The translations under genes and the position numbers were made by a program. From contig DATBRS010000246.1 in NCBI GenBank assembly GCA_036560185.1, positions 1-59,431 on the forward strand: a stretch of DNA of 59,431 bases, given 5' to 3'. The stretch's first letter is position 1; the number at the start of each line of letters is the position of its first letter. The notes under the pieces are model-generated. The model worked only from the letters and a program-made list of their open reading frames with translations. It did not search any database and was not told where the DNA came from. Below, piece by piece: positions 5,284-54,384 of this stretch. Source of the stretch: Myxococcota bacterium (GTDB lineage: Bacteria; Myxococcota_A; UBA9160; UBA6930).

Positions 5284-5296
5284 CATGCTCGCCGCG
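5284..5296 (+). promoter_or_regulatory. Possible -10 element for a leaderless coaE transcript
   Basis: CATGCT (5284-5289), then CGCCGCG, then ATG 5297, with no SD. Weaker than the other instances because position 1 is C. Confidence 0.35.
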
Positions 5297-5935
5297 ATGA
5301 CGCGGATCGTCGGGCTGACGGGCGGGATCGGGACCGGCAAGAGCACCGTCGCCCGCATGCTGGAGGCACTCGGCGCGGTCGTGGTCGATGCGGACGCGAT
5401 CGTCCACGAGCTGCAGGCGCCCGGGCAGCCCATGCTCGCCGAGATCGCGGCCGCGTTCGGCCCCGAGCTGCTGCGCGCGGACGGCAGCCTCGACCGCGCG
5501 CGACTGGCGCAGCGCGTATTCGCGGACCCGGCGGCGCGCCAGAAGCTCGGGGAGATCACGCATCCGGCGGTCGGGCGAGAGATGCTGCGGCGGCTCGAGG
5601 CCGCGCGCTCGGGAGGCGCTGCGCTGATCGTGCTGGACAACCCCCTGCTCTTCGAAGGCCGCGCCCGGCGCGCCGGCCCCGGCCGAGCCGCGGCGAGGGG
5701 CTCCTCAGCGGAGCCCGCCCAGGAGACGATCCTCGTGTACACGCCCGCCGAGACGCAGGTCGCGCGGCAGATGGCACGCGACGGCGTGACGCGCGAGTTC
5801 GCGCTCCAGCGCATGGCCGCGCAGCTGCCGATCGAGGAGAAGCGCGCACTCGCTACGCACGTGATCGACAACGCCGGCTCGCTCGAAGCCACGGAGCGCC
5901 AGGTCCGCGCGCTCCATGCCCAGCTCGCGCGCTAG
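5297..5935 (+). CDS. coaE: Dephospho-CoA kinase
   Basis: GLTGGIGTGKST P-loop, plus VVDADAIVHE, LDRARLAQRVF, ITHPAV and VIDNAGSLE. Confidence 0.95.
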   Translation: MTRIVGLTGGIGTGKSTVARMLEALGAVVVDADAIVHELQAPGQPMLAEIAAAFGPELLRADGSLDRARLAQRVFADPAARQKLGEITHPAVGREMLRRLEAARSGGAALIVLDNPLLFEGRARRAGPGRAAARGSSAEPAQETILVYTPAETQVARQMARDGVTREFALQRMAAQLPIEEKRALATHVIDNAGSLEATERQVRALHAQLAR

Positions 5936-6738
5936 CCGCCGGCCCCGCGCAGGGCCCCCTTCATCGCTCGGGCGAAACGCGCCACCGCCTCGACCGCTGC
6001 GCCCCGGCTCGGTGCCGCCTCGATCTCGCTCACGATCGCGCTGCCGACTGCCACGCCGTCCGCATAGCGCCCGATCTCGCGCGCGTGCTCCGGCCGCGAC
6101 ACGCCGAAGCCGACGCACACGGGGATGTCACCCAACCGCCGGATCCCGGCGACGCTGGCCTCGATGCCAGCGGCCAGCTCGCTGCGCGCGGCAGTTACGC
6201 CGGTCAACGAGACGTAGTACAGGAAGCCGCGGGTGTTGTGGACGAGCATGCGCATGCGGGCCGGTGTCGTCGTGGGCGACGCGAGCAACACGCTGTCAAC
6301 GCCGCGCTTCGCGAACGCCCCGTACAAGTCGGCGCCCTCTTCGGGCGGTAGATCCGGGCAGAGGATTCCATCGACGCCCGCGTCGGCGCAGGCGGCCGCA
6401 CAGCCCTCGCTACCCAGCGCGTAGAAGGGATTCGCGTAGCCCATCAGCAGCAGCGGGATCTTCACCTGCGCGCGCAGCCGGGCGACGAGCGGCAGCACCT
6501 TCCGCAGCGTCGTGCCCTTCGCGAGCGCGCGCTCGCTCGCGCGCTGGATCGTGGGGCCGTCGGCGCTCGGATCCGAGAACGGGATGCCGATCTCGATCAA
6601 GTCGGCGCCGCTGTCGGCGAGCGCGAGGATCAGCTCCGCGGTCGTCTCGAGATCCGGGTCGCCCGCCGTGACGAATGGGGCGAACGCGCGCTCTCCGGCA
6701 GCGCGTAGCGTCGCGAACGTCGCCGCGATTCGGCTCAC
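5932..6738 (-). CDS. trpA: Tryptophan synthase alpha chain
   Basis: [42 protein letters not shown] and VGFGVS. GTG 6738 overlaps the trpB stop. Confidence 0.97.
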
Positions 6739-7949
6739 TGCGCTCCGCCCGGCCGGCGCGCGGCGAGGATCTCGCGCACCTGCGGCGCGTCCTTGTCGCC
6801 GCGCCCCGAGAGATTGACGATCACGAGCGCAGCGCGCGGCAGCTCGCGCGCGAGCTTCGGCAGATACGCGATGGCGTGGGCGGACTCGAGCGCGGGCAGC
6901 AGCCCCTCGATGCGCGCGAGCTGCTGGAACGCGGCGAGCGCCTCTTCGTCGGTGATCGAGACGTAAGTCGCGCGCCCGCTCTCGTGGAGATGCGCGTGCT
7001 CGGGGCCGACGCCGGGGTAGTCGAGGCCGGCCGAGATCGAGTGCGCCGGGAAGATCTGCCCGTCGTCGTCGGCCAACACCAGCGTGCGCTGGCCGTGCAG
7101 GATGCCCGGAACGCCCGCGCCGATCGTGACGCCATGCCGCCCGCTCGCGATGCCCTCGCCCGCAGGCTCGACGCCGAACATGCGCACGGACGCATCGCCG
7201 AGGAACGGGTGGAAGAGACCCATCGCGTTCGAGCCGCCGCCGACGCAGGCGACGAGCGCGTCGGGCAGCCGGCCCGCGCGCAGCAGGATCTGCTCGCGCG
7301 CCTCGAGGCCGATCACGCGCTGGAAGTCGCGCACCAGCGTCGGATACGGATGCGGCCCCATCACCGAGCCGATGCAGTAGTAGGTCGTGCGCACGTTCGT
7401 GACCCAGTCGCGCAGCGCCTCGTTGATCGCGTCCTTGAGCGTGCGCGAGCCGCACGTGACGGCGTGCACCTGCGCGCCGAGCAGCTCCATGCGAAACACG
7501 TTCAGCGCCTGGCGCTTCACGTCCTCCTCGCCCATGAAGACTTCGCATTGCAGCCCGAGCAGCGCGCAGGCGGTCGCGGTCGCGACGCCGTGCTGGCCCG
7601 CGCCCGTCTCGGCAATCACGCGCGGCTTGCCCATGTACTTCGCGAGCAGCGCCTGACCGAGCACGTTGTTGATCTTGTGCGCGCCGGTGTGCGCGAGATC
7701 TTCGCGCTTCAGGTAGACCGTGAGCCCGGTTTCCTCGGAGAGCCGGCGCGCGTGATAGAGCGGCGTGGGGCGGCCGGCATAGTGCGTGAGCAGATCGCCG
7801 AGCTCGCGCTGGAACTCGGCGGAGGAGACGACGCGCGCGATCGCGGCCTCGAGCTCGTCGAGCGCCGCGATCAGCGACTCCGCGACGTAGCGGCCGCCGA
7901 AGCTCCCGAAGCGCCCGCGGCTCGGTCCGGGTTCCAGCGACTCGCTCAT
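6735..7949 (-). CDS. trpB: Tryptophan synthase beta chain
   Basis: PLP lysine motif [16 protein letters not shown], plus [19 protein letters not shown] and [18 protein letters not shown] 7949 overlaps the trpF stop. Confidence 0.98.
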
Positions 7950-8563
7950 TTCGACGCCTCGCGCACCGCCTTCACGAAGGCCACGATCTTCGCGGCGTCC
8001 TTGCGGAAGCTCTCGCCGTCGACGCCGGTCGCGACGTCGACGCCCCAGGGCAGCACGTCGCCGACGTCCGCGAGCGCCTGCGCGACGTTCTCGGGAGTGA
8101 GGCCGCCCGCGAGGATCACGTCGATGCCCGCGGAGATCAGCTGCGAGGCCTCGCTCCAATTCCACGCCTTGCCCTTGCCACCGCCCTCGGTCGGGTGATC
8201 CAGCAACAAGATCGCGCTCGGGAACTGCTCGGCGGCCTCCATGTCGGCGCCGCGCACGGCCTTGATCACGGGCAGGTCGACGCGCTCGATGTCTTCCTCG
8301 GTCTCCTCCCCGTGGAACTGCACGCGCTCGAGGTCCACCCGCCGCATCACTCGGAGGATCTGATCGAAGGGCGCGTCCGCGAACAGCGCCACGCGCTCGA
8401 TCTGCCCCGACACGCGCTCCGAGATCTTTTGCGCCTGCTCGATGGTCAGGGCACGCGGGGAGCCCGGCACGAAGTTGAGCCCGATCAGGTCCACGCCGGC
8501 GTCGACCGCCGCCGCGGCGTCGTCGGGGTGGGTGATGCCGCACACCTTGATCCGAACCGTCAC
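7946..8563 (-). CDS. trpF: Phosphoribosylanthranilate isomerase
   Basis: IKVCGIT, VQFHGEE, LLLDH...[20 protein letters not shown] and [11 protein letters not shown] 8563 overlaps the trpC stop. Confidence 0.95.
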
Positions 8564-9341
8564 GCCGTTCCTCTCAGTTTTCGCAGGGCGAGCCCGACAT
8601 CGGTCTCGCGCATCAGCGACTCGCCGACCAAGTAGCCGCGCGCGCCCGCTCGCGCGAGCCGTGCGATGTCCTCGGGCGCGAAAATACCGCTCTCCGCGAC
8701 GACCACGGCGCGCCCAGCCGCCTTGGGGGCGAGCCGCTCGGTCACCGCCAGATCGGTGTGGAAGCTGCGCAGGTCGCGGTTGTTGATGCCGATCAGCGGC
8801 GCGCCGCACGCGAGCGCGACCTCGAGCTCGGCAGCGTCGTGCACCTCGACCAGTACCTCGAGCCCGCGGCTCGCGGCGTGCGCCGCGAACGCCGCGATCT
8901 CGCCTGGCGAGAGCGCCGCCACGATCAGCAGGATCGCGTCGGCGCCGGCGAGCCGCGCCTCGTCGATCTGATAGACGTCGACGACGAAGTCCTTGCGCAG
9001 GAGCGGCAGCGGAGTCGCAGCGCGCACGGCTTCGAGCACCGCGAGAGAGCCGCCGAAGTAGGACTCGTCGGTGAGCACCGAGAGGGCAGCTGCGCCCGCG
9101 GCGGTGTAGGCGCGCGCGATCGCCACCGGATCGAAGTCGCCGCGGATCTCGCCCCGGCTCGGAGACCTTCGCTTGATCTCGGCGATCACGCGCGCGCCCT
9201 CACCCCCCGCGAGCGCCGCGCGCAGGCTCACCGGCACGCGCGCGCAGGTCCGCGCGCGCGCCGCGATCGCTTCGGCGCTCTCGCGCCGCTTCGCGGCGGC
9301 GACCTCGTCGCGTTTGGTCGCGAGGATCCGCGCGAGGATCG

Positions 9342-9345
<4 letters not shown>
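8560..9345 (-). CDS. trpC: Indole-3-glycerol-phosphate synthase
   Basis: [47 protein letters not shown] and VAESGI. GTG 9345 overlaps the trpD stop. Confidence 0.97.
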
Positions 9346-10360
<1,015 letters not shown>

Positions 10361-10364
<4 letters not shown>

Positions 10365-10954
10365 GCGGCGGCCCGCGGCGCACAGCGCGCGAGGAAGTTC
10401 GCGAGCACGCGCTTGCCTTCCCGCGTGAGGATCGACTCGGGGTGGAACTGCACGCCCTCGATCGGCAGCGTGCGGTGGCGCACGCCCATGATCTCGCCGT
10501 CCTCCGTACGCGCCGTGACTTCGAGCGCCTCGGGGCAGCTTTCGGGCTCGATCACGAGGCTGTGATACCGCGTCGCCTCGAGGGGCGTCGCGAGCCCGTC
10601 GAAGACGCCGCGCTGCTCGTGGTGGATCAGCGACGTCTTGCCGTGCATGAGGCGCTTGGCGGCGACGATGCGTCCACCGAACACCTCGCCGATCGCCTGA
10701 TGACCGAGGCAGACGCCCAGCACCGGCGTGCCGCGCTCTCCGAACGCGCGCACCGCCGCCATCGAGACGCCCGCCGCGTCCGGGCGGCCCGGCCCGGGGG
10801 AGATCACGAGGCCGTCGACGGGCCGGGCGAGCGAGCTCGCGAGCGGCTCCGCGTCGTTGCGCACCACGTCGACGCTCGCGCCGAGCTCGCCGAGGTACTG
10901 GAACAGGTTGTACGTGAACGAGTCGTAGTTATCGATCAGCAACAAGCGCGGCAT
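10361..10954 (-). CDS. trpG: Anthranilate synthase component II (class I glutamine amidotransferase)
   Basis: IDNYDSFTYNL, VISPGPGRP, catalytic LGVCLGHQ, RYHSL and GVQFHPES. Confidence 0.96.
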
Positions 10955-12442
10955 TCACTCCTCCCCTTCCCGCGCCATGTCGATCGCCTCGATCAGCGCG
11001 CGCAGCTTGTTCTCGCACTCCTTGTATTCGAGCCGCGGGTCGGAGTCGGCGACGATGCCCGCGCCCGCCTGCAGCGAGATCCTGCGCTCGTGCACCAGCA
11101 TCGTGCGGATCGTGATCGCGAGATCCATGTTGCCCGAGTAGTCGACGTAGCCGCAGCAGCCGCCGAAGGGCCCGCGCCGCAGCGTCTCGAGCTCGTCGAT
11201 GATCTCCATGGCGCGCACCTTGGGCGCCCCCGAGAGCGTGCCGGCCGGGAACGTGGCCCGTAACAAGTCGAGCCAGTCGAGGCCCGCCCGCAGCTTGCCC
11301 TGCACGTTGGAGACGATGTGCATCACGTGGGAGTAGCGCTCGATCGACGCATACTCGGTGAGCGCGACGCTGCCGACTTCGGCGACGCGGCCGACGTCGT
11401 TGCGGCCGAGGTCGACGAGCATCACGTGCTCGGCGATCTCCTTCGGATCCGTGCGCAGCTCCTGCTCCATCGCGAGATCGTCGGCGGCGTCGCGGCCGCG
11501 GCGGCGGGTGCCGGCGATCGGGCGCACGTCGATCTGCTCACCCTCCAGCCGCACCAGGATCTCCGGCGACGAACCGATCAGCACCGATTCGCCCATGCGC
11601 AGGAAGAACAGGTAGGGGCTCGGGTTGATGCGCCGCAGCTGGCGGTAGAGCATCAGCGGCTCGACTTGCAGCGGCATCGTGAAGCGCAGGCCGAGCACCA
11701 CCTGGAAGATGTCGCCCGCGACCACGTACTCCTTCGCGCGCTTCACCGCGTCCTGATAAGCCTCGGGCGTCATGCTGCGCTCGAGCGCCATCGCGCTGCG
11801 CACGGGCGGCCGCCGCTCGTCGGCGCGGCGCGGGCCGCGAATCAGCGCCACGAGCGCGTCGATCTTCGCGACCGCCTCGGCGTGAGCGGAGCGCGCCTCG
11901 CGGCGGTCGCGTAGGTCGACGTGGTGCACGATCAGCGCGGTGTGCTTCAGGTTGTCGTAGACGACGACGCTGTCCGGGAAGCTGAACCACAGGTCCGGCA
12001 GACCGATCGGGTCGGGGTTCGCGTCGGGGAGCTTCTCGATGAAGCGCACCCAGTCATATCCGATCATGCCGACGGCGCCGCCGGTGAAGCGCGGCAGCAC
12101 GACGCCGGGCAGCGCGACTGGCTCGAACTCCGCGAGCCGCGCGCGCAGCACGGCCAGCGGATCGCCGCCGGCGTCGAAGCTGCGCGTCTCGCCGCCCTCG
12201 CTCCACTCGACGCGGGCGCCGCGCGCGTGGAAGCGAGCGCGGCTGCCGACGCCGATCAGGCTGTAGCGCGCCCACTTCTCGCCGCCTTCCACGGACTCGA
12301 GCAGGAAGGACGTCGCGCCGTCGTCGAGCTGGCGGAAGAGCGAGAGCGGCGTGTCGAGATCCGCCAGCACCTCGCGCACCACCGGGATCAAGTTGCCGCG
12401 CGCGGCCAGCTGCACGAACTCGTCGGCCTGGGGGCTCGTCAC
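10955..12442 (-). CDS. trpE: Anthranilate synthase component I
   Basis: FLLESVEGGEKWARYS, GDIFQVVL, NPSPY, RPIAGTR, EHVMLVDLGRND, FPAGTLSGAPK and QAGAGIVADS. GTG start at 12442. Confidence 0.97.
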   Translation of the reverse strand: MTSPQADEFVQLAARGNLIPVVREVLADLDTPLSLFRQLDDGATSFLLESVEGGEKWARYSLIGVGSRARFHARGARVEWSEGGETRSFDAGGDPLAVLRARLAEFEPVALPGVVLPRFTGGAVGMIGYDWVRFIEKLPDANPDPIGLPDLWFSFPDSVVVYDNLKHTALIVHHVDLRDRREARSAHAEAVAKIDALVALIRGPRRADERRPPVRSAMALERSMTPEAYQDAVKRAKEYVVAGDIFQVVLGLRFTMPLQVEPLMLYRQLRRINPSPYLFFLRMGESVLIGSSPEILVRLEGEQIDVRPIAGTRRRGRDAADDLAMEQELRTDPKEIAEHVMLVDLGRNDVGRVAEVGSVALTEYASIERYSHVMHIVSNVQGKLRAGLDWLDLLRATFPAGTLSGAPKVRAMEIIDELETLRRGPFGGCCGYVDYSGNMDLAITIRTMLVHERRISLQAGAGIVADSDPRLEYKECENKLRALIEAIDMAREGEE

Positions 12443-12521
12443 GGGGGCCTCGCGTCGCGCGCCATGCGCGGATCGCCACGGTTATCAGAGCGGCCGAGCG
12501 CGCGCAAAGCCCCGCGCCGCA

Positions 12522-18116: not shown

Positions 18117-18629
18117 TCAGAGCGTCTCCTGATCCGCGAAGCGGCCGAGGTACTTCGCGCGTCCCTCCGCCCGCATCACGACCAGCTGGCAGATCCGCAC
18201 GCCGGCGTGGATCTCGAGCGGGTGGCCGGAGACGTTGCTGATCTCGAGCACCTGCCGATTTGAGACGCCCGGCTGCACGAAGGCCGAGGTCACGTGAATC
18301 ATCAGGCCGAGCCGCGCGAAGCGGCTGCGGCCCTCGAGCAGGCCGCACAGGTCCTGCGCGAGCGTGACGCGTTCGCGCGTGATGCCGTGAATCGTGGCGC
18401 CGGGGGCAAGCACGTAGGGCTGCGCGAGCGAGGCCACACGCGTGTAGTCGCGATAGTCGACGTCCTCGCGAATCGGGATCGGCTCGGCGCCGCGCTCGAT
18501 CACGCGGATCTCGACGCCGAGCGTGAGGTCGATCGAGGCGGGTCCCACTTGGTCGGGCTCGAGCGGCTCGATCACGATGCGGCGGGCCGCGATCTCGCTG
18601 AGCAGAACGTCGCGCGTGAGAACCGTCAT
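18117..18629 (-). CDS. dcd: dCTP deaminase
   Basis: VGPASIDLTLG, LEGRSRFARLGL, QVLEISN and RICQLV. ATG at 18629. Confidence 0.88.
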   Translation of the reverse strand: MTVLTRDVLLSEIAARRIVIEPLEPDQVGPASIDLTLGVEIRVIERGAEPIPIREDVDYRDYTRVASLAQPYVLAPGATIHGITRERVTLAQDLCGLLEGRSRFARLGLMIHVTSAFVQPGVSNRQVLEISNVSGHPLEIHAGVRICQLVVMRAEGRAKYLGRFADQETL

Positions 18630-18653
18630 GGCGCGCGACGGTAACATCGCGCG
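18630..18653. promoter_or_regulatory. Overlapping back-to-back -10 elements for the divergent genes dcd and glpQ
   Basis: 24-bp spacer. Plus strand: TAACAT (18642-18647), 6 nt, ATG 18654. Minus strand: TACCGT (18643-18638), 8 nt, ATG 18629. No SD on either side. Confidence 0.55.
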
Positions 18654-19460
18654 ATGCCGCATCCGTTCTTCGCGATCCCGCGCCCGATCGTGTTCGGGCA
18701 TCGCGGCGCGTGCGGCGAACGCCCTGAGAACACGCTGATCTCGTTCGAGCGCGCGCTCGCGCAGGGCGCGGACGTGCTCGAGACGGACGTGCACGCGACC
18801 CGCGACGGCGAGGTCGTCGTGCTGCACGACGCCGACGTTGCGCGCACCACGGACGGCTCCGGCGACGTCGCCACGTCGACGTGGGACGAGCTTCGCCGCC
18901 TCGACGCCGGCCACCGCTTCGCGGCGGAAGACGGCAGCGCGCCCTTCCGCGGCCGCGACGTGCGCATCCCTCGGCTCGACGAGGCGCTCGCGCGCTTTCC
19001 CGGGGTGCGCTTCAACATCGAGCTGAAGCGCGCCGACGAGCGCTTGATCGGCGCCGTGCTCGACTTGTTGCGGAGCACGGGGCGCGAGTCGATCTCGCTG
19101 CTCGCCGCCGAACGCGACGACGCGATGCGGGCGCTGCGCTCCGCGGTGCGCGCGCGCGGCAGCCGCGTCGCGCTCGGCGCGTCCGCTGCCGAAGTGCTCG
19201 GCTTCGTGCGGGCGGCGATCGAGAGTGGCGAGCCACCGGCCGGCCCGATGGCGCTGCAGATTCCCGCGGAGTTCCTCGGGCGTCCGCTGGTCACGCCCGA
19301 GCTCGTGTCCTTCGCTCACGCCCAGGGCGTCCAGGTGCACGTGTGGACGATCAACGAGCCGGCCGAGATGCGGCGCCTGATCGCGCTCGGGGTCGACGGC
19401 GTGATGAGCGACTTCCCGGGCCGCCTGCGCCGCGTGGTGGACGAGACGCGTGGCGCTTGA
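18654..19460 (+). CDS. glpQ: Glycerophosphodiester phosphodiesterase
   Basis: FGHRG...RPENT, LETDVHATRDGEVVVLHD, FNIELK, VHVWTINE and GVDGVMSDFP. Confidence 0.92.
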   Translation: MPHPFFAIPRPIVFGHRGACGERPENTLISFERALAQGADVLETDVHATRDGEVVVLHDADVARTTDGSGDVATSTWDELRRLDAGHRFAAEDGSAPFRGRDVRIPRLDEALARFPGVRFNIELKRADERLIGAVLDLLRSTGRESISLLAAERDDAMRALRSAVRARGSRVALGASAAEVLGFVRAAIESGEPPAGPMALQIPAEFLGRPLVTPELVSFAHAQGVQVHVWTINEPAEMRRLIALGVDGVMSDFPGRLRRVVDETRGA

Positions 19461-31140: not shown

Positions 31141-31205
31141 GCGGCGGGAGTTACGGAACGCCGCTGGGCCGGGCAAGCGCGCCTGGATCGCGCGCGCGCG
31201 GCCCC

Positions 31206-31218
31206 TACGTTGCGCCGC
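31206..31218 (+). promoter_or_regulatory. -10 element of a probable leaderless SNF2 transcript
   Basis: TACGTT (31206-31211), GCGCCGC, then GTG 31219. No SD. Confidence 0.5.
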
Positions 31219-34116
31219 GTGCAGGCGCTGTTCGACAGAGTGCGCGGCGAGGCAGAGCGCGGCGCGTGGACCGAGGGCGTCGAGATCGCGCGCGCGGGCG
31301 GCGTCACCCAAGAGCGCGTCGCGGGCGGTGAGCGCGTGCTGCGCGTGCGGCCGAGCGCCGGCCTGATCCACCCCACCGTGCTGATCTACGTCGACGACCA
31401 GGAGTGGGAGTGCGACTGCGGCAGCGCGCAGGATCCGTGCGCGCACGTCGCGGCGGCGGTCATCGCGCTGCGCCGCGCGCAGCAGGAGGGCCGCGAGCTG
31501 CCGGCGGCGGCGGCCTCCGGCGCGGGCGCGCTCGGCTATCGCTTCCGCAGCGAGGCGACCGGGCTCTCGCTGCAGCGCGTCGTCGTGCGCGGCGAGCGCG
31601 AGGAGCCGCTGCGCGCATCGCTCGCGGCGCTGCGCTCGGGGCGCGCCGTCGGCCCACCGGTGAGCCCGACGCAGAGCGACGTCGCGATCGAGATCGCCCT
31701 CGGCGCAGCGCCCGTCGGCCCGCTGCCGCGCGGCGTGCTGCGCGCCCTGCTCGCGCCGCTCGAGAGCTGCGACGACGTGACGCTCGACGGCGCGCGGATC
31801 CGCGCGAGCCGCGAGCCTGTCGGCCTGCGCGCGCGCCTCGTCGACGAGGGTCCGGGCTTTCGCCTGCTCGCCGAGCCCGATCCGCCGATCGCGCGCGCGC
31901 TGCCCGACGGCTTCGCGCTGTGCGGCGACGTGCTGCGCGAAGTCGGCCCTTCCCGGCTCACCGGTCGCGAGCGCGACGAGCTGCGCCCGCCGGGGCGCTG
32001 GTTCAGCGCGAACGACGCCGCGTCGCTGATCGCGGACCTCCTGCCCGATCTTGAGCAGCGCGTACCGGTATCGCTCGAGACGACCCGCCTCGCGCGGGGG
32101 CGCCGCGAGCCGCCGCGGCTGCGCGTCGAGACCGAGCGCCGCGGCGACGCGCTCTCGGTACTCGCCACCATCGTCTACGGCGATCCGCCGACCGCGCGCA
32201 TCGACGCGGGCAAGCTGGTTGCGCTCGGCGGCGCGATCCCGATTCGCGACGAGGCCGCCGAGCGGGAGCTCGAGCGGCGGCTCGCGCAGCAGCTCGAGCT
32301 CGCGCCGGGGCACCGCGCGGAGCTCGCGCCGGCAGACGCGATCCGCTTTCGCGAGCGCCTCGAGCGCACGCGCGTGGAAGTCGCGGGCACGGCGCAGCGC
32401 GAGTTCACGCTCGCGGCGGCGCTCGAGCCCGAGCTGCACGTGGACGCCGAACGCTTCGCCGTGCGCTTCCGCAGCGTGGGCGGCGGCGAGGCGAGCGCAA
32501 GCCGGGTGCTCGCCGCGTGGCGCGCCGGCGAAGCGCTGGTGCCGCTCGCGGGCGGCGGCTTCGCCCCGCTCCCGCACAACTGGCTCGCGAAGCTCGGGCC
32601 GCTCGTGGCGGATTTGCTCGCGGCGCGGCGCCCCGATGGCAGCGTGCCCGCGAGCGGACTGCCCGATCTCGCGCGCCTCTGCGACGCGCTGGAGCAGCCG
32701 CGGCCGCCGGGCTTAGAGCGCCTCGCCGCGCTGCTCGGCGATTTCACCCAGCTGCCCGAGGCCCCGCTCGCCGCCGCGCTCGCGAGCCGGCTGCGGAGTT
32801 ATCAGGTCGTCGGCGTGCGCTGGCTGCACTTCCTCGGCCGCGCGGGCCTCGGTGCGCTGCTCGCCGACGACATGGGCCTCGGCAAGACGCTGCAGGCCCT
32901 CGCGACCTTCGGGCCGCGCACCCTGGTGGTCGCGCCGACCAGCCTGCTGGCGAACTGGCGCGACGAGCTCACGCGCTTTCGGCCGGAGCTGGAAGTGCAC
33001 ACTTATCACGGCGCAGACCGTGAGCTCGAGGATCGCGCGCCCGTCACGCTCACCACGTACGCCCTGTTGCGGCGCGACGCGGAGGCGCTCGCCGCGATTC
33101 CCTGGGAGCTGGTCGTGCTCGACGAAGCGCAGGCGATCAAGAATCCCGACAGCCAGACCGCGCGGGCCGCGTTCGCGCTGCGCGCCGAGCGCCGCATCGC
33201 GCTGACGGGCACGCCCGTCGAGAACCGGCTCGAAGAGCTCTGGAGCGAGATGCACTTCCTGAATCCCGGCCTGCTCGGCGGGCGCGCGGACTTCGACGAG
33301 CGCGTCGCGCGACCGCTCGCCGCCGGCGATCCCGACGCTGCGCCGCGCCTGCGCGAGCGCCTGCGGCCGTTCGTGCTGCGCCGGCGCAAGGCCGAGGTCG
33401 CGCCGGAGCTGCCGCCGCGCACCGAGCTGGTGCTGCACTGTGTGCTCTCCGACGCCGAGCGAGCCGTCTACGACGCGGTGCGGGCGGCGACGACGCCCGA
33501 GGTGATCGCGCGCCTCGCGCACGGCGGCAGCGTGATGGAGGCGCTCGAAGCGCTGCTGCGCATGCGCCAGGCGTGCTGCCACCCGCGCCTCGTACCGGGC
33601 CAGCAGCTCGACGCCTCCGCCAAGCTCGAGCTGCTCGCCGACCGGCTCGAGACGATCGCGGCGGAGGGGCACAAGGCACTCGTCTTCTCGCAGTGGACGG
33701 CGCTGCTCGACCTCGTCGAGCCCCGGCTGCGCGAGGTGGGCCTCGACTTCGTGCGCCTCGATGGCTCGACCCGCGATCGCGGGGAGGTCGTCGCGCGCTT
33801 CCAGGCGAGCGCAGGCCCGCCCGTCTTCCTGATCTCGCTGCGCGCAGGCGGGACCGGCCTGAACCTAACAGCCGCGGATCACGTCTTCCTGCTCGATCCG
33901 TGGTGGAACCCCGCGGTCGAAGACCAGGCCGCCGACCGCGCTCACCGCATCGGGCAAGAGCGCCCCGTGCTCGTGCACCGCTTGGTCGCGCAGGACACCG
34001 TCGAGGAGCGCATCCTCGCGCTGCAGCAGAGCAAGCGCGCGCTCGCGGCGGCGGCGCTCGACGGCGGCGCGGGCGGCGAGCTGACGCGCGAGGACCTGAT
34101 CGCGTTGCTCGCGTAG
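31219..34116 (+). CDS. SWIM zinc finger plus SNF2-family ATPase
   Basis: SWIM motif [18 protein letters not shown]2 motifs [56 protein letters not shown] and [21 protein letters not shown]. Confidence 0.95.
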
Positions 34117-34160
34117 CCGCGAAATTCGCGCGCGAGAATCGCTTCGGCGCGGCGTGCAGC

Positions 34161-34174
34161 TACTGTGCGCCGCC
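34161..34174 (+). promoter_or_regulatory. -10 element of a probable leaderless DUF4262 operon
   Basis: TACTGT (34161-34166), GCGCCGCC, then in-frame GTG 34175. No SD. Confidence 0.5.
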
Positions 34175-34690
34175 GTGCGAGAGCAACCCGACATCGACGC
34201 CCGCGTGCGTGAGCACATCACCCGCTTCGGCTGGCACCTCGTGCTGATTCCGCCGACTCCCGAGGCGAGCGGCTGGGTACACACGATCGGACTCGAGGAG
34301 CGTTTCGGGCACGCCGAGCTGATCGTCTTCGGCAACGACTTCTCGGTGCTCTCCCCGCTACTCAACGCGCTCGGCGAACGCATCCGCGCGGGCGCTCGGC
34401 TGCGATCCGGCGCCGAGCTGTCCGGCGTGCTCGAGGGTCTGCCGCTCGCCTTCCGGAGCGTCGCCCCGAAGTGGATCGAGCCCTTCCTCGGGAACGCCGC
34501 GTGGCACTACCAGCGCGAGTCGATTCCGGCGCTCCAGTGCTTCTGGCCCGACGCTGCGGGGCGTTTCCCGTGGCAGCCCGAGTTCGACTCCGCGCTGCGC
34601 GACGACCAGCCGCTCTTGTTCGAGCGCGAGACCCACAAGGCGCTCTCGGAGCGCATGCTCGCCGCGCTGCGGGCCGACGGGGCGCTGTGA
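34175..34690 (+). CDS. DUF4262-like protein
   Basis: FGWHLV, WVHTIGL...GHAELIVFG and ALQCFWPDAAGRFPWQP match the DUF4262 pattern (YTVGL / HPEL / Q-x-x-WPD-x-x-G-x-x-PW). Confidence 0.75.
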   Translation: MREQPDIDARVREHITRFGWHLVLIPPTPEASGWVHTIGLEERFGHAELIVFGNDFSVLSPLLNALGERIRAGARLRSGAELSGVLEGLPLAFRSVAPKWIEPFLGNAAWHYQRESIPALQCFWPDAAGRFPWQPEFDSALRDDQPLLFERETHKALSERMLAALRADGAL

Positions 34691-46760: not shown

Positions 46761-46791
46761 GCGCTACCCGTGCGACTTCCCTTCGGAAAGC

Positions 46792-46867: not shown

Positions 46868-46917
46868 ACGAGGCGATGGTTACCCGCGCGCATACTCGGC
46901 CGCAATATAAGGTGGGG

Positions 46918-48054: not shown

Positions 48055-48076
48055 GGGGACTCCATTTCCTAAGCGG

Positions 48077-51064
48077 CTAGACGAATGAGATCTTCTTCTT
48101 GCGGCGCGGCGCTCCCGGCGACCCGGGGCCTTGCGGCGCGGCCGGAGCGCTCGGGGGCGCCGGCTTGGGCGGATCCGGCGGCGGCTCCGGAGCGCGCGTG
48201 GCCCTGCGCGGCGGAGGCTCCGGCGGTGCGCTCGGCTCGCTCTCGTCCTCGACCACCTCGTCCTGCAGGTCGAGCACCTCGGCCTCGGCCGGAGCGCTCT
48301 GGATCGCGTCCGAATCCTCCCCAGTCACGAGCTCGTCGAAGGATTCGTAGCTCGCTGCGGGCGCGACTCTCGGCGGCTCGCTGCCATGGTCTCCGACGAA
48401 GTCGTCGAAGGATTCGAAGGTCTCACCGCCATCAGCGGGCGCGGGCGGCGCTGCGGCCAGCTCCGCGAGCAAGCGGTCGATATCCCCGAAGCTCGGGTCC
48501 ACGCCGCGCGCGGCCTCGAACTCGCGCCGCGCGCGCGCGCGGTCGCCGTTCCCCTGATAAGCGCGACCGAGATCGACGCGCAGCGCGGCTTCCTGCTCCG
48601 CCGGCAGCTGTCCGCGCGCCAGCGCTTCGGACAAGTGCGCGATCGCGTCGCCGGCGCGTCCGAGGTCGAGTGCGCAAACGCCCATCAAGTGGAGGCACGC
48701 GAGGCTCCGGCCGGGATCGCCGTGGGCGACGCGGAACTCGCCGATCGCATCCTCGAGCAGGCCCATCTCCTTGTAGGCGATGCCGAGATCGAAGTGCGCC
48801 TCGTAGTCGCCGTCCTCCACCTCTCGCTTCACGCCGGCCTTGAAGGCGGCGAACACTTCCGCGAAGCCGTCCCCGTCGGAGTTCCCGGATGCCGTGCGTG
48901 CGGCGCCCGGTTCGTCGAAGGCGCCCGACAGCTCCGCCGCGAGATCGAAGTCCGCGCCCCCTAACATTTCGGGCGGGGCCTCCTCGCGAGCCGCGACCGG
49001 CGCCGGCTGCGCAGCGCGCGGCGCGGCTTGCGGTGTGGCGGGCGCCGGCGGAGCGATGGGGGATGCGACGGGCGCGGCGTACTCCGGCGTCGTGAGATCG
49101 CTGAGCGAGTCCGCCTCCTCGGCGGCGGCGGGCGACTGCGCGCTCGTCGCAGGTAGGTCGAGGTCGAGCGATGCCGCGCTGGCGGCCTCGACCTCGGCCA
49201 GCTTCGCCTGTGCAACGGGGTGGCCCGGCTTCGCGGCGAGCACGCGCGCGTAGAGAGCGCGCGCCTCTTCGAGGAGTCCCTGCTCGCGATAGAACTCCGC
49301 CTCTTCGAGGTCTGCTTGAACCGAGCTCGCAGCCCCCTGCGCAGGGTGCGCCGGAGTCGCCACCGCCGGTTTCGCGGGAGGCGCCTCCGTCTTCGCCCCG
49401 TCCGCTCGGTCGTCGAAGGAGAACTCACCCTCGTCGTCACTCGGCGTCGAAGCGGGCGCGGCGTTCTCGCGCAGCGGCGATTCCTCGGCCGGAGCGTCCG
49501 CGAGATCGCCCGAGACGTCGATGTCGATGCCTGAGAAGTCGTCGTCGGCTGCGCTCGCTGCCGGGTCCGGCGCTGCGCTGGGCTCTGGCCCCGCGAGCGA
49601 GTCGTGATCGCCGGCGTCGATCTCGATGTCGACGTCGCCGGAGTCAAGATCGGCGAGCGCATCCGTCGCCGGCTCGCTCGCCGGCGGCGCGGCCAGCGCA
49701 GACGCCGCGCGCGCATCGAGGGGCGCGAGCAAGCGCCGCACGCGCTCGACGCCTTCGGCGTTGCCTGCATCGCCATAAGCAGCGCCCGCACGTGCGAGCG
49801 CCGACGAGGCGTGCGGCTTGTTCCCGATCGCGACCAGCGACTCGCCCAGCTTCTCGAGCGCCGCCGCGTTCCCGGGTTCGACGCGCAGCGCCGAGCGCAG
49901 CGTCTCGATCGCACGCTCGTGCTTGCCGTAGCGCGAGAACACGCTCGCCTCGGCGAGCAACTGGTCGAAGTCTGCATCGGAGTCGGAGTCGCCCGCCGGT
50001 GCGATCTCCTCCGCGAGATCGCCGCTCGGCTGAAGCGTGCTGTCGGACGATTCGCCGAGCTCGTCCGGCTCGTCGCTCGCGGGCGGCTCTGCGGACTCGT
50101 CCTCAACGGCGTCGACGAGGCCGAGCGAGGCGTCGAGATCCGGATCGATCTCGAGATCGGTCGGATCGCCCTCGAGCGCGAGCGGGCCGGAATCCCCGGC
50201 CTCGAATGCCGCGCCCGCCCCGTAGCGCTGCGTGAGCGCGCGCGCGCGATCCTCGTCGCCGCGAGCGCGGAAGATCTCCGCGAGGCCGCGGAAGGTCTCT
50301 GCGGCTTCCTCGTCGCGCCCGATGCGCTCGAGCACGGTCCCTAACAGCTCGAGCGCGGCGACGTCGTCGGGCATCGCGGCGACCAGGCTCCGCGCCGCTT
50401 TCTCCGCCTGCTGCTTCGCGCCGGTCTCGAGCGCAGCCTGCGCGAGCGCGCGCAGGGTCGAGGCGCGCGCGGGCGCGAGCTCGAGCGCGCGCTCGAGCAC
50501 CTTGATCTGCCCCTCGGCGTTCTTCTGGCGTTCGAGCTCGCGCACGACCTCGTCGTACTCGGCGAGCGCGTCGTCGACCTTCCCTTCCGCCCGCAACAAG
50601 TCGGCGACCTTGAGCCGGCTGGTCGTGTTCGTGGGATCCAGCGCCGCCATGCGCCGCAGCAGGCCGAGCGCCTGGCTCTTGTCGCCCGCGCGGTGCGCGC
50701 CGTCCGCCGCGAACTGGATCGCCCGCATCGCCTCGGAGGTGAGGCCCATGCGCTGGTACAGCTCGCCGAGCTGCGCGTGGACCTCGAAGCGCTTCTCGTC
50801 GAGCTTCGTGACCTGCTTGTAGAGCGCGACCGCCTTCGCGTCGAAACCTTCGTTCGTGAATTGTTGGGCGACGCGCAGGTAGGCGTCGATCGCCTCGGAG
50901 GTGCGACCGAGCTTCAAGTGGAGATCGCCCACCTTGAGGCGGATGTTCGAGTCCTTCGAATCCGCCTTGAGGAGGGTTTGGTAGTCCTCGAGCGCCTTGT
51001 CCAAAGCCCCGCGTTGCAGGTGCTTTTGGGCAGACTCGAGGATCTTCCGCTTGTTCACCGCCAA
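48077..51064 (-). CDS. sgmX: Large multi-TPR protein, SgmX-like type IV pilus activator
   Basis: N-terminal TPR block (GALDKALEDYQ, GFDAKAVALYKQV, GLTSEAM), middle TPRs separated by acidic linkers, a C-terminal block FKAGV...EAHFDLGIAYKEMGLLEDAIGEF, and the tail KKKISFV. Lies downstream of pilQ and mglC. TTG 51064 follows a GAGGGGG SD. The orthology call is from recall. Confidence 0.75.
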   Translation of the reverse strand: MAVNKRKILESAQKHLQRGALDKALEDYQTLLKADSKDSNIRLKVGDLHLKLGRTSEAIDAYLRVAQQFTNEGFDAKAVALYKQVTKLDEKRFEVHAQLGELYQRMGLTSEAMRAIQFAADGAHRAGDKSQALGLLRRMAALDPTNTTSRLKVADLLRAEGKVDDALAEYDEVVRELERQKNAEGQIKVLERALELAPARASTLRALAQAALETGAKQQAEKAARSLVAAMPDDVAALELLGTVLERIGRDEEAAETFRGLAEIFRARGDEDRARALTQRYGAGAAFEAGDSGPLALEGDPTDLEIDPDLDASLGLVDAVEDESAEPPASDEPDELGESSDSTLQPSGDLAEEIAPAGDSDSDADFDQLLAEASVFSRYGKHERAIETLRSALRVEPGNAAALEKLGESLVAIGNKPHASSALARAGAAYGDAGNAEGVERVRRLLAPLDARAASALAAPPASEPATDALADLDSGDVDIEIDAGDHDSLAGPEPSAAPDPAASAADDDFSGIDIDVSGDLADAPAEESPLRENAAPASTPSDDEGEFSFDDRADGAKTEAPPAKPAVATPAHPAQGAASSVQADLEEAEFYREQGLLEEARALYARVLAAKPGHPVAQAKLAEVEAASAASLDLDLPATSAQSPAAAEEADSLSDLTTPEYAAPVASPIAPPAPATPQAAPRAAQPAPVAAREEAPPEMLGGADFDLAAELSGAFDEPGAARTASGNSDGDGFAEVFAAFKAGVKREVEDGDYEAHFDLGIAYKEMGLLEDAIGEFRVAHGDPGRSLACLHLMGVCALDLGRAGDAIAHLSEALARGQLPAEQEAALRVDLGRAYQGNGDRARARREFEAARGVDPSFGDIDRLLAELAAAPPAPADGGETFESFDDFVGDHGSEPPRVAPAASYESFDELVTGEDSDAIQSAPAEAEVLDLQDEVVEDESEPSAPPEPPPRRATRAPEPPPDPPKPAPPSAPAAPQGPGSPGAPRRKKKISFV

Positions 51065-51263
51065 ACGAGCGCCCCCTCTTCCCCAACACGGCGCAGCGCC
51101 CCCGCCGAGCGGGTTCGCCTCCCCCAATACGGGTTCATATCGGGACGGCGGGGGGGCCTCTTGAGGCAGGAGCCGCCCAAGGCGAGCCCGGGCGGGGCGA
51201 ATCCGGCGGGCCTCTACTCCGACGGAGCCTGCGCCCCGCGGTGGGAGCCTGCGAGGCTTCGGC

Positions 51264-51701
51264 TCACTTCGCGAGGCGGGTGAGCAGGCCCTCGAGGCCG
51301 AGCCGGTAGCTGTCGGCGCCGAAGCCCGAAACGATCGCCACGCACACCCCGGAGAGCAGCGACTGCTGCCGGAACTCCTCGCGTGCGAAGATGTTCGAGA
51401 GGTGCACCTCGATCGCCGGAAGCGAGACGCCCGCGATGGCGTCGCGCAGCGCGACGCTGGTGTGCGTCAAGCCGCCGGCGTTCACGATCAGGCCGTGCGC
51501 CCAGGTACGCGCCTCGTGAATCCGGTCGATCAGGCCGCCCTCGTGGTTCGATTGGAAGCAGTGCACCTCGGCACCGCGCTCGCGCCCGAGCGCGACCAGG
51601 CGCGCGTCGATCTCGCCGAGCGTCGTCGTGCCGTACAGCGCGGGCTCGCGGGCACCCAGCAGGTTCAGATTCGGCCCGTGGAGGACGAGGATGTTGGGCA
51701 T
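51264..51701 (-). CDS. aroQ: Type II 3-dehydroquinate dehydratase
   Basis: LHGPNLNLLGAREPALYG, FQSNHEG, NAGGLTHTSVALRDAI and IEVHLSNIFAREEFR. Confidence 0.97.
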   Translation of the reverse strand: MPNILVLHGPNLNLLGAREPALYGTTTLGEIDARLVALGRERGAEVHCFQSNHEGGLIDRIHEARTWAHGLIVNAGGLTHTSVALRDAIAGVSLPAIEVHLSNIFAREEFRQQSLLSGVCVAIVSGFGADSYRLGLEGLLTRLAK

Positions 51702-51714
51702 GCGGCGCACGGTA
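51702..51714 (-). promoter_or_regulatory. -10 element of a probable leaderless aroQ transcript
   Basis: TACCGT (51714-51709), GCGCCGC, then ATG 51701. No SD. Confidence 0.5.
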
Positions 51715-51769
51715 GCCGCGCAGTTCCCGCGGCCCAGCTTCGAGCGCGCTGCTCGCTACGCCGCACGGG

Positions 51770-52129
51770 CTAGAGCTGCTCGCGCACGTCGAGCGTGTGG
51801 CGGCGCAGCAGGTAGCGGGCCTTGCCGAGGTTCCCGGTGGGATCGAGCGCCAGTACGAAGAACGTCTCGCGATCGACCGCACGCAGCACCACCTGCGTCC
51901 GCGCCATCGCGATCACGAGCTCGTCCAGCTCCCCCCCGTTCACGGTGGACGCGACCTTGCGCGCCTCGTCCAGCACGCGACCGAACTCGACGCCGAGCAG
52001 CGTCACCTCGTCGCTCTCGCCGGCGCCGCCGACTTCCGCGATCGGGATCCCGTCCGCGCCCATCAGCGCGATCCCGATGCAGCCCGGGCACTGGTTCACG
52101 ATCGCGCCGAGAATCGTCTCGAAGCTCAT
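51770..52129 (-). CDS. mglC: Roadblock/LC7 protein, MglC-like
   Basis: MSFETILGAIVNQ, LMGADGI and FFVLALDPTGNLGKARYLLR. The 119-aa length and position downstream of pilQ fit MglC. Confidence 0.8.
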   Translation of the reverse strand: MSFETILGAIVNQCPGCIGIALMGADGIPIAEVGGAGESDEVTLLGVEFGRVLDEARKVASTVNGGELDELVIAMARTQVVLRAVDRETFFVLALDPTGNLGKARYLLRRHTLDVREQL

Positions 52130-52743
52130 GCCGTTCGCCTCCGCAAGTTGTCGAGCCAGCGCGTGAGGGTGGCGACGACTTTCTCGCGTCGCGCCTCATC
52201 CAATCGCTGCTCACGGAATTGTCCCCGCAGCCGCGCAGCCGTGCGCACCTCGTCCGCACGCTCGCGCTGTCCTTGCCGCTCGAGCAAGCCGGCCACCGTC
52301 TCCGTCGCGAAAGGAGACTCCGCCGAGGTGAGGTCGACGCCCTCGGGCACGCCGTCTTCGACGAGCTCGAGCGCAGCGGCGGCGACTTCATTCGCGTCGT
52401 GCATCTCGTCGGCCTGCGCTTCCGCTGTCTCGAATGCGTCCTCGACTTCGTCGTCGGCGAGCTCTGAGAGCGCTGCGGGCGCAGCGAGCACGGCCTGTGG
52501 CTCTTCGACTTCGCCGCCGAGCGCGAGATAGGCGGCCTCGAGCGCGCGATGGGCGGTCACGAGATCGCCGGAGTCGATCAGCGCGAGCGCGTAGGCGACA
52601 TGCGCCACCGGATGCGGCGCCTCCGCGTCGAGCGCGGCGTGTGCGAGCTCGCGCGCGCGATCGGGCCGGCCCGCGCGGCGTTCGCCTTCGGCGCGCGCGG
52701 CGAGCGCCGCACTGTCCGTCTCGCTCGTTCGCGTCTGACTCAT
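52126..52743 (-). CDS. Hypothetical TPR-like protein
   Basis: N-terminal TPR-like helices, an acidic linker, FATETVAGLLERQG and a C-terminal helix LTRWLDNLRR. Its ends overlap both aroB and mglC. Confidence 0.65.
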   Translation of the reverse strand: MSQTRTSETDSAALAARAEGERRAGRPDRARELAHAALDAEAPHPVAHVAYALALIDSGDLVTAHRALEAAYLALGGEVEEPQAVLAAPAALSELADDEVEDAFETAEAQADEMHDANEVAAAALELVEDGVPEGVDLTSAESPFATETVAGLLERQGQRERADEVRTAARLRGQFREQRLDEARREKVVATLTRWLDNLRRRTA

Positions 52744-53852
52744 CAGCGTTTCGCCCCTGTTCGCAGCGCCGGGGGAAGGATCTCTTCTGGGCGCAGCGGC
52801 ACCGTCTCCGCGCTGCCGATCATACGCAGCGCGACGAAGCGGATGTGCGCGTCCCGCCGCTTCTTATCGGCGGATATCGCATCGAGATAAGCGCGCCGCG
52901 GGAACGGCGGCAGCTCGGTCGGGAGCCCCGCCCGCGCGAGCAGGGCCACCAGGCGGACCGCGCTGCCGGGCGCCGCCAAGCCGAGCTCCTCGCTGCGCCG
53001 GGCGGCGAACGCCATGCCCATCGCGACCGCCTCCCCGTGCAGCACGCCGCGGTACTTCGAGAGCGCCTCGACGGCGTGCCCGAGCGTGTGGCCGAAGTTG
53101 AGCAGCATGCGCTCGCCCGATTCGCGCTCGTCGCGGCTGACGACGCCAGCTTTGATCGCGCAGTTGCGCGCCAAGAACGGCAGCAGGACCTCCGGATCGA
53201 GGGCGAGCAGCCGCTCGAGCTCACGCTCGAGCAGGGCGAACAGCTTCGCGTCGCGAATCGCGGCGTGCTTCACGCCCTCGGCCAGCCCGGCGAGCAGCTC
53301 GCGGCGCGGCAGCGAGCGGAGCGTCGCGGCATCGATCCACACGAGCTTCGGCTGATGGAAGGCGCCCACCAGATTCTTGCCGCGCTTCACGTTCACACCG
53401 GTCTTGCCGCCGACGCTGGAGTCGAGCATCGCCAGCAGGCTGGTCGGAACCTGCACGAAGGCGACACCGCGCAGCAGCGTCGCCGCGACGAAGCCGGTGA
53501 GATCTCCGACGACTCCGCCGCCGAGGGCGATCAGCACGCTGCCGCGGTCGGCCTCGGCCGCGAGCAGCGCGTCGTAGAGCTGCTCCGCCTGCCGCAGGCT
53601 CTTGCTGCGCTCGCCATCCGGGACGACGAGCCGCTTCACCGTCAGGCCCGCCGCCTTCAGCGAACGCTCGACCGGCGGCGCCCAACGCTTCGCGACCGGC
53701 GGCACCGTGACCACGAACGCGCGGCTCGCCCCGGTGCGCTCCTTCACCGCGCTGCCGAGCTGCCCGAGCGTGCCGACGCCGATTTGGATCGGGTAGCCGC
53801 GCGCACCGAGCTCGACGTGGATGGTGAGCCCCGCAGCCGTCGCGGACGTCAT
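52743..53852 (-). CDS. aroB: 3-dehydroquinate synthase
   Basis: PDGERSKS, ALGGGVVGDLTGF, QVPTSLLAMLDSSVGGKTGVN and LNFGHTLGHAVE...HGEAVAMG. Confidence 0.97.
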   Translation of the reverse strand: MTSATAAGLTIHVELGARGYPIQIGVGTLGQLGSAVKERTGASRAFVVTVPPVAKRWAPPVERSLKAAGLTVKRLVVPDGERSKSLRQAEQLYDALLAAEADRGSVLIALGGGVVGDLTGFVAATLLRGVAFVQVPTSLLAMLDSSVGGKTGVNVKRGKNLVGAFHQPKLVWIDAATLRSLPRRELLAGLAEGVKHAAIRDAKLFALLERELERLLALDPEVLLPFLARNCAIKAGVVSRDERESGERMLLNFGHTLGHAVEALSKYRGVLHGEAVAMGMAFAARRSEELGLAAPGSAVRLVALLARAGLPTELPPFPRRAYLDAISADKKRRDAHIRFVALRMIGSAETVPLRPEEILPPALRTGAKR

Positions 53853-54370
53853 GCCTGCTCCCGGGTCAGCAGCGCTTCGATCTCGCGCGCGATCCGGCGC
53901 GGATTCCCGGTATTCGAGTCGACGATGTGGTGCGCCTGCATGTACGCCGGCTCCCGTTGCGCGAGCAGCTCACGCAGCTTCGCGAGTCGCCCCGCTGCGT
54001 CCAGCCCCGCGAGCAGCGGCCGCGAAACGCCCGAGCCGACGCGGCGCGAAAGCGTCTCCGCACGCGCGCGCAGGTAGACGACGACGCCGCTCGCCCGCAA
54101 GCGCTCCGGCGCGCCCGGCTGCGCCATTGCGCCGCCTCCGAGCGCGACGACCGCGCGGCTCGCCGCGAGCCGCTCGATCACCGCGCGTTCTCGCGCGCGA
54201 AACGCGGCCTCGCCCTCGCGCGCGAAGATCTCGGGAATCGTCGTGCCGGCCTCGCGTGCGATCTCGGCGTCCGAGTCGTAGGCCGCGCAGCCGAGCCGCT
54301 TCGCGAGCTCCAGGGCGACGCTGGATTTTCCAGCACCCATCAGGCCCACCAGGAAGATCGTCCGCTGCAT
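53849..54370 (-). CDS. aroK: Shikimate kinase
   Basis: Walker A GLMGAGKS, YDSD, EGEAAFRARE, ALGGG and RPLL. Confidence 0.96.
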   Translation of the reverse strand: MQRTIFLVGLMGAGKSSVALELAKRLGCAAYDSDAEIAREAGTTIPEIFAREGEAAFRARERAVIERLAASRAVVALGGGAMAQPGAPERLRASGVVVYLRARAETLSRRVGSGVSRPLLAGLDAAGRLAKLRELLAQREPAYMQAHHIVDSNTGNPRRIAREIEALLTREQA

Positions 54371-54384
54371 CGCGCCGCAGCTTA
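54371..54384 (-). promoter_or_regulatory. -10 element of a probable leaderless aroK transcript
   Basis: TAAGCT (54384-54379), GCGGCGCG, then ATG 54370. No SD. Confidence 0.5.

Follow-up and report, generated by a model that had tools for sequence, protein, structure and literature searches.

TAnnnT-GCGC promoter signatures directly before start codons and predicted leaderless genes in an uncultured, GC-rich order of Myxococcota

Do the TAnnnT hexamers that stand a few nucleotides before the start codons of several genes lacking a Shine-Dalgarno (SD) sequence mark promoters from which leaderless mRNAs are made? The question is raised by contig DATBRS010000246.1 of assembly GCA_036560185.1, assigned to a Myxococcota bacterium (GTDB lineage Myxococcota_A; UBA9160; UBA6930), whose whole stretch of 59,431 nt was analyzed and is called here the window. 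An original prediction, made from the letters of the window alone, had described such hexamers with a near-identical GC spacer before six genes and a weaker case before a seventh, coaE. Each of the seven motif strings occurs exactly once, at the positions and on the strands listed below, SNF2 and aroQ do share the spacer GCGCCGC, and a scan of the window for additional strict TAnnnT cases revealed none beyond those first described. The gene names were upheld by Pfam matches to CoaE, GDPD (glpQ-like), dCTP deaminase-like, SNF2/Helicase_C, DUF4262, type II dehydroquinase and shikimate kinase, and in the proposed proteins the domains start between residues 1 and 16. Taking together the evidence presented below, we consider it very probable that these promoter-adjacent starts, in the window and elsewhere in the genome, yield leaderless or near-leaderless mRNAs.

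coaE, plus strand, gene 5297-5935: hexamer CATGCT at 5284-5289, spacer CGCCGCG, ATG at 5297; candidate -10 of the non-consensus type CAnnnT; promoter plus start 5284..5299
dcd, minus strand, gene 18117-18629: hexamer TACCGT at 18643..18638, spacer CGCGCGCC, ATG at 18629; promoter plus start 18627..18643
glpQ, plus strand, gene 18654-19460: hexamer TAACAT at 18642-18647, spacer CGCGCG, ATG at 18654; promoter plus start 18642..18656
SNF2-family helicase, plus strand, gene 31219-34116: hexamer TACGTT from 31206, spacer GCGCCGC, GTG at 31219; promoter plus start 31206..31221
DUF4262, plus strand, gene 34175-34690: hexamer TACTGT from 34161, spacer GCGCCGCC, GTG at 34175; promoter plus start 34161..34177
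aroQ, minus strand, gene 51264-51701: hexamer TACCGT at 51714..51709, spacer GCGCCGC, ATG at 51701; promoter plus start 51699..51714
aroK, minus strand, gene 53849-54370: hexamer TAAGCT at 54384..54379, spacer GCGGCGCG, ATG at 54370; promoter plus start 54368..54384

Position and frequency of the hexamer across the genome

The window is contig C246 of a 4.32-Mb assembly (295 contigs, 71.5% GC), in which genes were called with a home-made program that starts from stop-to-stop open reading frames (ORFs), scores them with a codon log-odds model trained in iterations and greedily selects those that do not overlap. Start codons were chosen by the coding score and a start-codon prior, the upstream sequence being ignored, and the output comprised 3,857 genes covering 89% of the sequence, of which 3,698 were usable for the motif test. 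The offsets of TANNNT from these starts peaked at -15/-14/-13/-12 (43/66/44/79 genes), beside a region nearly void of the motif at -11 to -5 and with a background of 5-10 per position further upstream. Altogether, a TAnnnT beginning 12-15 nt before the start was found in 230 of the 3,698 genes (6.2%), compared to an expectation of 24.6 +/- 5.1 and a maximum of 41 when the upstream 60 nt were shuffled 100 times with dinucleotides preserved, while the rate was 0.07% at internal in-frame ATG/GTG codons and 0.66% at non-start ATG/GTG codons upstream of genes. The original prediction had proposed a genome-wide count against shuffled controls, in which a lack of positional enrichment would have spoken against it; the count returned a ninefold enrichment at -15 to -12, and the sharp 4-nt peak beside a void agrees with its statement that the repeated placement was unlikely to be chance.

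These counts bear directly on the possibility that the motif is an effect of chance or composition, produced by the TA of stop codons, by the abundant word TTGTTACGG, or by start codons being chosen downstream of TA-containing, poorly coding sequence. TA is rare in this DNA, small numbers in a single window could mislead, and the glpQ hexamer does hold an in-frame TAA; however, beyond the excess over shuffles and the shape of the peak, genes that closely follow another one on the same strand almost never carry the motif, just 5 of the 230 hexamers are TACGGT, and the arrangement is conserved in relatives but present in 1 of 274 control windows. Chance or composition was therefore rejected on shuffles, gene context, hexamer make-up and conservation, and retains hardly any probability.

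The number of genes concerned can be estimated from the excess over background. Mixture models fitted by expectation-maximization (EM) failed for this purpose, since a one-motif model converged on the SD sequence (lambda 0.61) and the second motif of a two-motif model drifted to a generic GCGC composition model, and the leaderless fraction was taken from excess-over-background counts instead. Strict TAnnnT was found in 198 of 2,181 putative first genes (9%), a share that rises to ~11-12% once mis-called starts are added, and alternative candidate starts showed a secondary peak at -15 to -12 comprising 87 genes. Genes of the leaderless type thus likely total ~230-290, that is, 6-8% of the genes and ~9-12% of the first genes.

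Evidence for a -10 element and the proposed mode of initiation

Several properties point to the hexamer as the -10 box of a promoter. Among the 64 possible X-Y-n-n-n-Z classes, only TAnnnT was strongly enriched before first genes (198 observed vs 11 expected), CAnnnT showed a weak excess in first genes, and no excess was found for TAnnnA, TAnnnC or TAnnnG, so that the hexamer is constrained at the positions that count in a -10 box; the maximum at -12 is likewise where such a box canonically lies if transcription begins with the start codon. The claimed lack of an SD was confirmed, as an SD 4-mer at -17 to -7 occurs in just 9 of the 230 motif genes vs 47% of all genes, although the geometry accounts for part of this lack, the space being taken up by the hexamer and the spacer. 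Moreover, the motif precedes 0.8% of the genes located 20 nt or less behind a same-strand gene and 18.6-19.1% of those within 100 nt of a divergent neighbor (19% at 41-100 nt), and judged by this gene-neighbor context it is practically confined to the first genes of transcription units. The start codons of the 230 motif genes were ATG in 177, GTG in 51 and TTG in 2, vs 59%, 37% and 3.5% overall, and this preference for ATG and GTG with a near absence of TTG fits a purine as initiating nucleotide.

The spacer provides further evidence. The six bases 3' of the hexamer are 91-93% G+C and alternate G-C-G-C at ~0.6 each, and GCGC follows directly in 31% of the start-adjacent hexamers, the commonest spacer genome-wide being GCGCGC (21 genes) and GCGCCGC occurring in three genes. 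A second and broader hump of TAnnnT lies 26-38 nt upstream of other starts (~290 hexamers), where GCGC also follows 31% of the hexamers, whereas it follows just 3.8% of the intragenic ones. The equal share at both positions and its rarity inside genes indicate that the hexamers are -10 boxes of a single promoter class, TAnnnT-GCGC, and the hump implies many very short leaders (~13-25 nt) that hold little beyond an SD. The near-identical GC spacer of the original prediction therefore stands as a recurrence but not as plain GC-rich DNA, since a GCGC-type discriminator, belonging to the promoter grammar of the genome, explains the similar spacers seen in the window. Positional enrichment, SD lack, first-gene restriction, purine starts, the shared discriminator and conservation all favor the earlier reading of the hexamers as -10 boxes.

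In the mechanism that we propose, the TAnnnT hexamers would act as -10 elements of a housekeeping-sigma promoter and the 6-9 nt GC-rich stretch that follows, with the consensus GCGC(S)(S), as its discriminator. By this geometry, transcription would begin at or just before the start codon, with RNA polymerase starting at its A or G or, where the spacer measures 9-10 nt, up to ~3 nt upstream. The resulting mRNAs would carry neither leader nor SD and would be translated through direct binding of the ribosome and initiator tRNA to the 5' AUG or GUG. Some 230-290 genes, about one in nine first genes and including all seven of the window, would be expressed in this manner, while the other genes would be SD-led, often from the same -10/GCGC promoter type placed 26-38 nt upstream. 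Both the transcription start site (TSS) and the mode of translation are inferred here from the arrangement of these elements.

An alternative is that the hexamer acts in the RNA, with a more distant TSS upstream and with UAnnnU (6-9 nt ahead of the start codon) as a non-SD element that recruits the ribosome or keeps the site unstructured, as in the AU-rich leaders proposed for Bacteroidota or in S1-dependent initiation. The motif indeed sits where an SD would be, and in so GC-rich a genome any A/T-containing patch lowers local structure. Against this, what is enriched is the pattern T-A-n-n-n-T and not A/T-richness in general, and the same hexamer with GCGC recurs before SD-led genes at a distance (26-38 nt) that excludes a function as ribosome site. 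Besides, operon-internal genes nearly lack the motif (0.8%) although they too must recruit ribosomes, start codons with a purine in first place are preferred, and the 24-bp gap between dcd and glpQ would push the leader of each gene through the other. We therefore regard a role in the RNA as quite improbable.

Some observations weigh against the promoter interpretation or limit it. In other families dcd often has a spacer of 9-10 nt, which implies a leader of 2-3 nt and not strictly zero, even though leaders of up to 5 nt are still counted as leaderless in the literature. With ~9-12% of first genes by the counts of our own caller, the genome lies below the ~25-50% of operons that characterizes the typical group C genomes of GeneMarkS-2. 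The starts come from a home-made, non-benchmarked caller, and for four of the seven in the window a comparison with relatives was needed. No -35 hexamer was found upstream of the motif, just a faint TTG signal (2-3%) ~23-24 nt before the hexamer, and no TGn extension was found genome-wide, so that promoter strength would depend on the -10 box and the discriminator alone. In addition, no open-complex stabilizer of the CarD/CdnL type was found in this 92%-complete metagenome-assembled genome (MAG), where the sole match to PF02559 (CarD_TRCF) is a 1,239-aa Mfd frame (G000:C58:1894-2064; L358). The idea that CarD/CdnL offsets the weakness of -35-less promoters is accordingly unsupported, since only Mfd carries the domain; CdnL is present in cultured myxobacteria, and a small protein of this type may be absent merely through the incomplete assembly. 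The MAG contains no 16S gene either, and it is the strong GGAG peak that points to an anti-SD in this host.

Start codons and their conservation among relatives

Since the promoter interpretation places transcription at the start codon, much depends on the codons being correct. A further alternative holds that the hexamers are -10 boxes but that the true starts lie further downstream, the leaders being misread as coding sequence. The caller, blind to the motif, matches the proposed start in three of the seven window genes (glpQ, SNF2 and aroK), picks other codons for coaE, DUF4262 and aroQ, and mis-calls dcd owing to a long shadow ORF; hence four proposed starts were not its first choice, and an in-frame downstream GTG or ATG exists for most of them. 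However, the Pfam matches of aroQ, dcd and coaE start within residues 1-4 (residue 4 for the CoaE domain), and in the relatives the conservation of the protein begins exactly at the proposed codon. The onset of coding signal at the starts of motif genes is comparable to that at SD-led starts, with a G+C content at third codon positions of 0.86 in codons 2-16 vs 0.71 upstream and codon log-odds of +0.28 vs -0.59, and SD-led alternative starts downstream are in no excess (7.4% of motif genes vs 10.1% of SD-led genes). Starts further downstream are therefore very improbable.

Upstream alternatives fare no better. The in-frame TAA at -12 within the glpQ hexamer makes an upstream start impossible for this gene, and aroK has no alternative start codon upstream. 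The ATG at 5285 inside the coaE hexamer is not kept, relatives having CATCCT or CACGCT, the GTG at 34154 upstream of the DUF4262 start is not conserved, and a GTG 9 nt before the aroQ start (window 51708-51710, minus strand) is in frame here and out of frame in the relative L002/L147, all of which supports the proposed starts. Comparison with relatives thus favors the proposed codons of coaE, dcd, DUF4262 and aroQ, and the claim that the motif fixes start codons is supported at the level of protein conservation.

The aroQ case illustrates a trap for automatic annotation. In 44 genes a TA stands at -4/-3 of the called start, mostly as TAnnGTG, where the final GT of the hexamer and the first G of the discriminator form a GTG that a motif-blind caller chooses; a 7-nt spacer places this spurious codon 9 nt ahead of the real start and in its frame, as in aroQ (TACCGTGcgccgcATG). 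The trap likely adds three spurious codons to proteins in automatic annotations of this clade, and in total ~40-90 starts are probably mis-set genome-wide. The promoter box has value for annotation, as it appears to fix start codons that standard rules miss in this lineage.

Conservation was assessed by searching each window gene in 30 relatives of the same genus, family and order for an in-frame start in an interval around the aligned N-terminus (45 nt upstream, 30 nt downstream) with a TAnnnT 6-10 nt before it; the nearest public aroQ loci belong to MAGs labeled Myxococcota or 'Deltaproteobacteria'. The motif was present before dcd in 21 of 23 relatives, 7-10 nt ahead of the ATG, and before aroK in 23 of 26. 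For aroQ it was found in 14 of 15 relatives of the genus and family and in 0 of 10 from other families, and for SNF2 in 11 of 15 and in 1 of 10 from other families of the order. DUF4262 carried it in 8 of 12 genus and family relatives, in the form TAnnnT plus 8 nt plus GTG (6/7 in the genus, 2/5 in the family). For coaE, TAnnnT was found in only 5 of 24 relatives, a number that becomes 17 of 24 when CAnnnT is allowed at the same place, so that this case, first described as weaker, is supported as well. By comparison, control windows placed 120 nt upstream and 240 nt downstream contained the motif in 1 of 274, and the sequence upstream of the hexamers diverges freely among relatives while the motif stays.

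Several of the aroQ orthologs without the motif in other families bear an SD behind a more distant TAnnnT. The pattern suggests that aroQ and SNF2 are leaderless in the genus and family and SD-led in sister families.

Two additional features were seen upstream of these genes. In many family- and order-level relatives (for example L122, L127, L129, L130 and L135), the 70 nt before aroK include GC-rich hairpins of the GGGGGAGCTTCGGCTCCCCC type, which occur 5-15 nt upstream of the aroK hexamer and look like intrinsic terminators of the preceding gene that abut the next promoter. A block GAGTTACGGAAC at window ~31149-31160, ~60-70 nt upstream of the SNF2 start, is kept at the same relative position in several genus-level relatives (L201-L205) amid varying surroundings, and it resembles part of the hyper-abundant word TTGTTACGG of this genome.

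Phylogenetic reach, known leaderless systems and the dcd-glpQ promoter

The reach of the trait was explored with the same pipeline in five 400-kb genome samples, one from the same family, one from the same order and three from other families of the phylum. The motif was found in 8.3% of the genes in the same-family sample (10 and 13 matches at -13/-12 vs a background of 1.1) and in 5.1% in the same-order sample, while the three samples from other families (GC 53-61%) showed no motif above background and a detectable SD signal. The peak in family and order and its absence from the three other lineages indicate a trait that marks the order, possibly more, but not the whole phylum. This genome-wide sampling left aside class-level genomes and the high-GC Myxococcia/Polyangia, and the class level was covered at the dcd locus only, where the orthologs L246 (G070) and L247 (G058) have an upstream TTGACA-type box and a GGAG SD. 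As dcd is SD-led at class level and of the leaderless type at order level, it appears to have switched its expression mode between orders. In the sampled genomes, leaderless-type expression in Myxococcota is thus lineage-restricted and not phylum-wide.

In the literature, leaderless genes are recognized by a TAnnnT box ~12 nt before the start (Zheng et al. 2011, PMC3160421; GeneMarkS-2 group C, PMC6028130), a box also described in M. tuberculosis (Cortes et al. 2013, PMC3898074) and in Deinococcus-Thermus (PMC12340547). The genes reported here resemble the TA-led genes of Actinobacteria (Mycobacterium, Streptomyces, Corynebacterium) and Deinococcus-Thermus in the position of the box, the spacer of 6-8 nt, the lack of an SD, the restriction to operon-first genes, the 5' ATG or GTG, the weak middle positions of the hexamer and the lack of a conserved -35. 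They differ from them in frequency, with ~6-8% of genes and 9-12% of first genes here vs 20-40% or more there, in the uncultured Gram-negative Myxococcota host, in the pronounced GCGC discriminator, in that CarD/CdnL was not detected, and in TSSs that are inferred from sequence.

The original prediction had regarded leaderless mRNAs as less expected in a Myxococcota-like genome, which overstates the surprise, because predictions for delta-proteobacteria and myxobacteria precede our results. Zheng et al. (2011) predicted leaderless genes in 8 of 33 delta-proteobacterial genomes, with a mean of 15.8% of genes (PMC3160421), and the GeneMarkS-2 study places 104 of 1,854 Proteobacteria in leaderless group C (PMC6028130), while a 2025 paper proposed that the pexR mRNA of Myxococcus xanthus and other myxobacteria is leaderless (PMC12754779). 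Our case shares with these reports the phylum-level neighborhood and the inference from a sigma-A type -10 box adjoining the ORF; it differs in that they concern cultured myxobacteria or single genes and ours an uncultured order. The literature searched contained no study that maps the TSSs of leaderless mRNAs genome-wide in Myxococcota.

GCGC discriminators mark stringently controlled promoters of E. coli, such as rrnB P1. The likeness consists in GCGC lying directly downstream of the -10 hexamer; unlike there, GCGC follows ~1/3 of all recognizable promoters in this 71.5% GC genome, and the comparison concerns the sequence and not a response to ppGpp (guanosine tetraphosphate) and DksA or to the initiating nucleotide.

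The most compact arrangement in the window is that of dcd and glpQ, whose start codons (18629 and 18654) face each other over 24 bp, a distance that leaves no room for leaders or separate promoters. The hexamers of the two genes, on opposite strands, share the TA step at 18642-18643 (ACGG[TA]ACAT at 18638-18647), and an A...TA...T core flanked by both start codons at 5-10 nt was found in 22 of 27 genomes of the order, with start-to-start distances of 24-29 bp (25 bp in the window, taking the starts as inferred TSSs). A single bidirectional promoter, with hexamers overlapping at the TA step, appears to serve both genes.

Bidirectional promoters with reciprocally overlapping -10 elements have been described in E. 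coli and other bacteria (Warman et al. 2021, as summarized in PMC10268837 and PMC12825309), with divergent TSSs 7-25 bp apart and preferred distances of 18, 10 and 23 bp. The dcd and glpQ hexamers overlap reciprocally in the same manner, sharing a palindromic TA (T-12/A-11 of each), and their match to the 23-bp class is our own derivation, with inferred TSSs 24-29 bp apart. In E. coli the divergent partner is mostly a non-coding transcript and a spacing of 18 bp is the most frequent, whereas here both arms are predicted leaderless protein genes and the arrangement is order-wide (22/27 genomes). The pair would thus represent a compact, conserved natural bidirectional promoter driving two predicted leaderless protein genes, and could be used in synthetic constructs or in studies of promoter competition.

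It is conceivable, if unlikely as a whole, that these features belong together. The housekeeping promoter of the order would have shrunk to TAnnnT plus a GCGC discriminator, without a -35 or a detectable CarD/CdnL, and genes would flip over evolution between leaderless and SD-led versions, as for aroQ and SNF2. The shared-TA promoter of dcd and glpQ would act as a switch with mutually exclusive states, polymerase in one orientation blocking the opposite one, and through GCGC leaderless expression would respond to the concentration of initiating ATP/GTP or to ppGpp.

The results point to ordinary leaderless expression, an already known mode of expressing genes, and leave the known picture of bacterial translation initiation unchanged. 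Slightly beyond the textbook are the place of the GCGC discriminator in the promoter grammar, the bidirectional leaderless promoter that dcd and glpQ would share order-wide, orthologs that switch between leaderless and SD-led forms and the TAnnGTG trap, and the findings provide a simple promoter model, TAnnnT-GCGC, for an uncultured and very GC-rich clade of Myxococcota without genetics.

Head-to-head pairs with a shared-TA core are no general rule in this genome, since only 3-4 exist genome-wide, which ruled out back-to-back leaderless pairs as a genome-wide class. Besides dcd-glpQ, two such pairs lie at G000:C110:11930-11956 and G000:C236:8755-8782 (AGGCTATCGT, ACGGTATTCT), with starts 26-27 bp apart.

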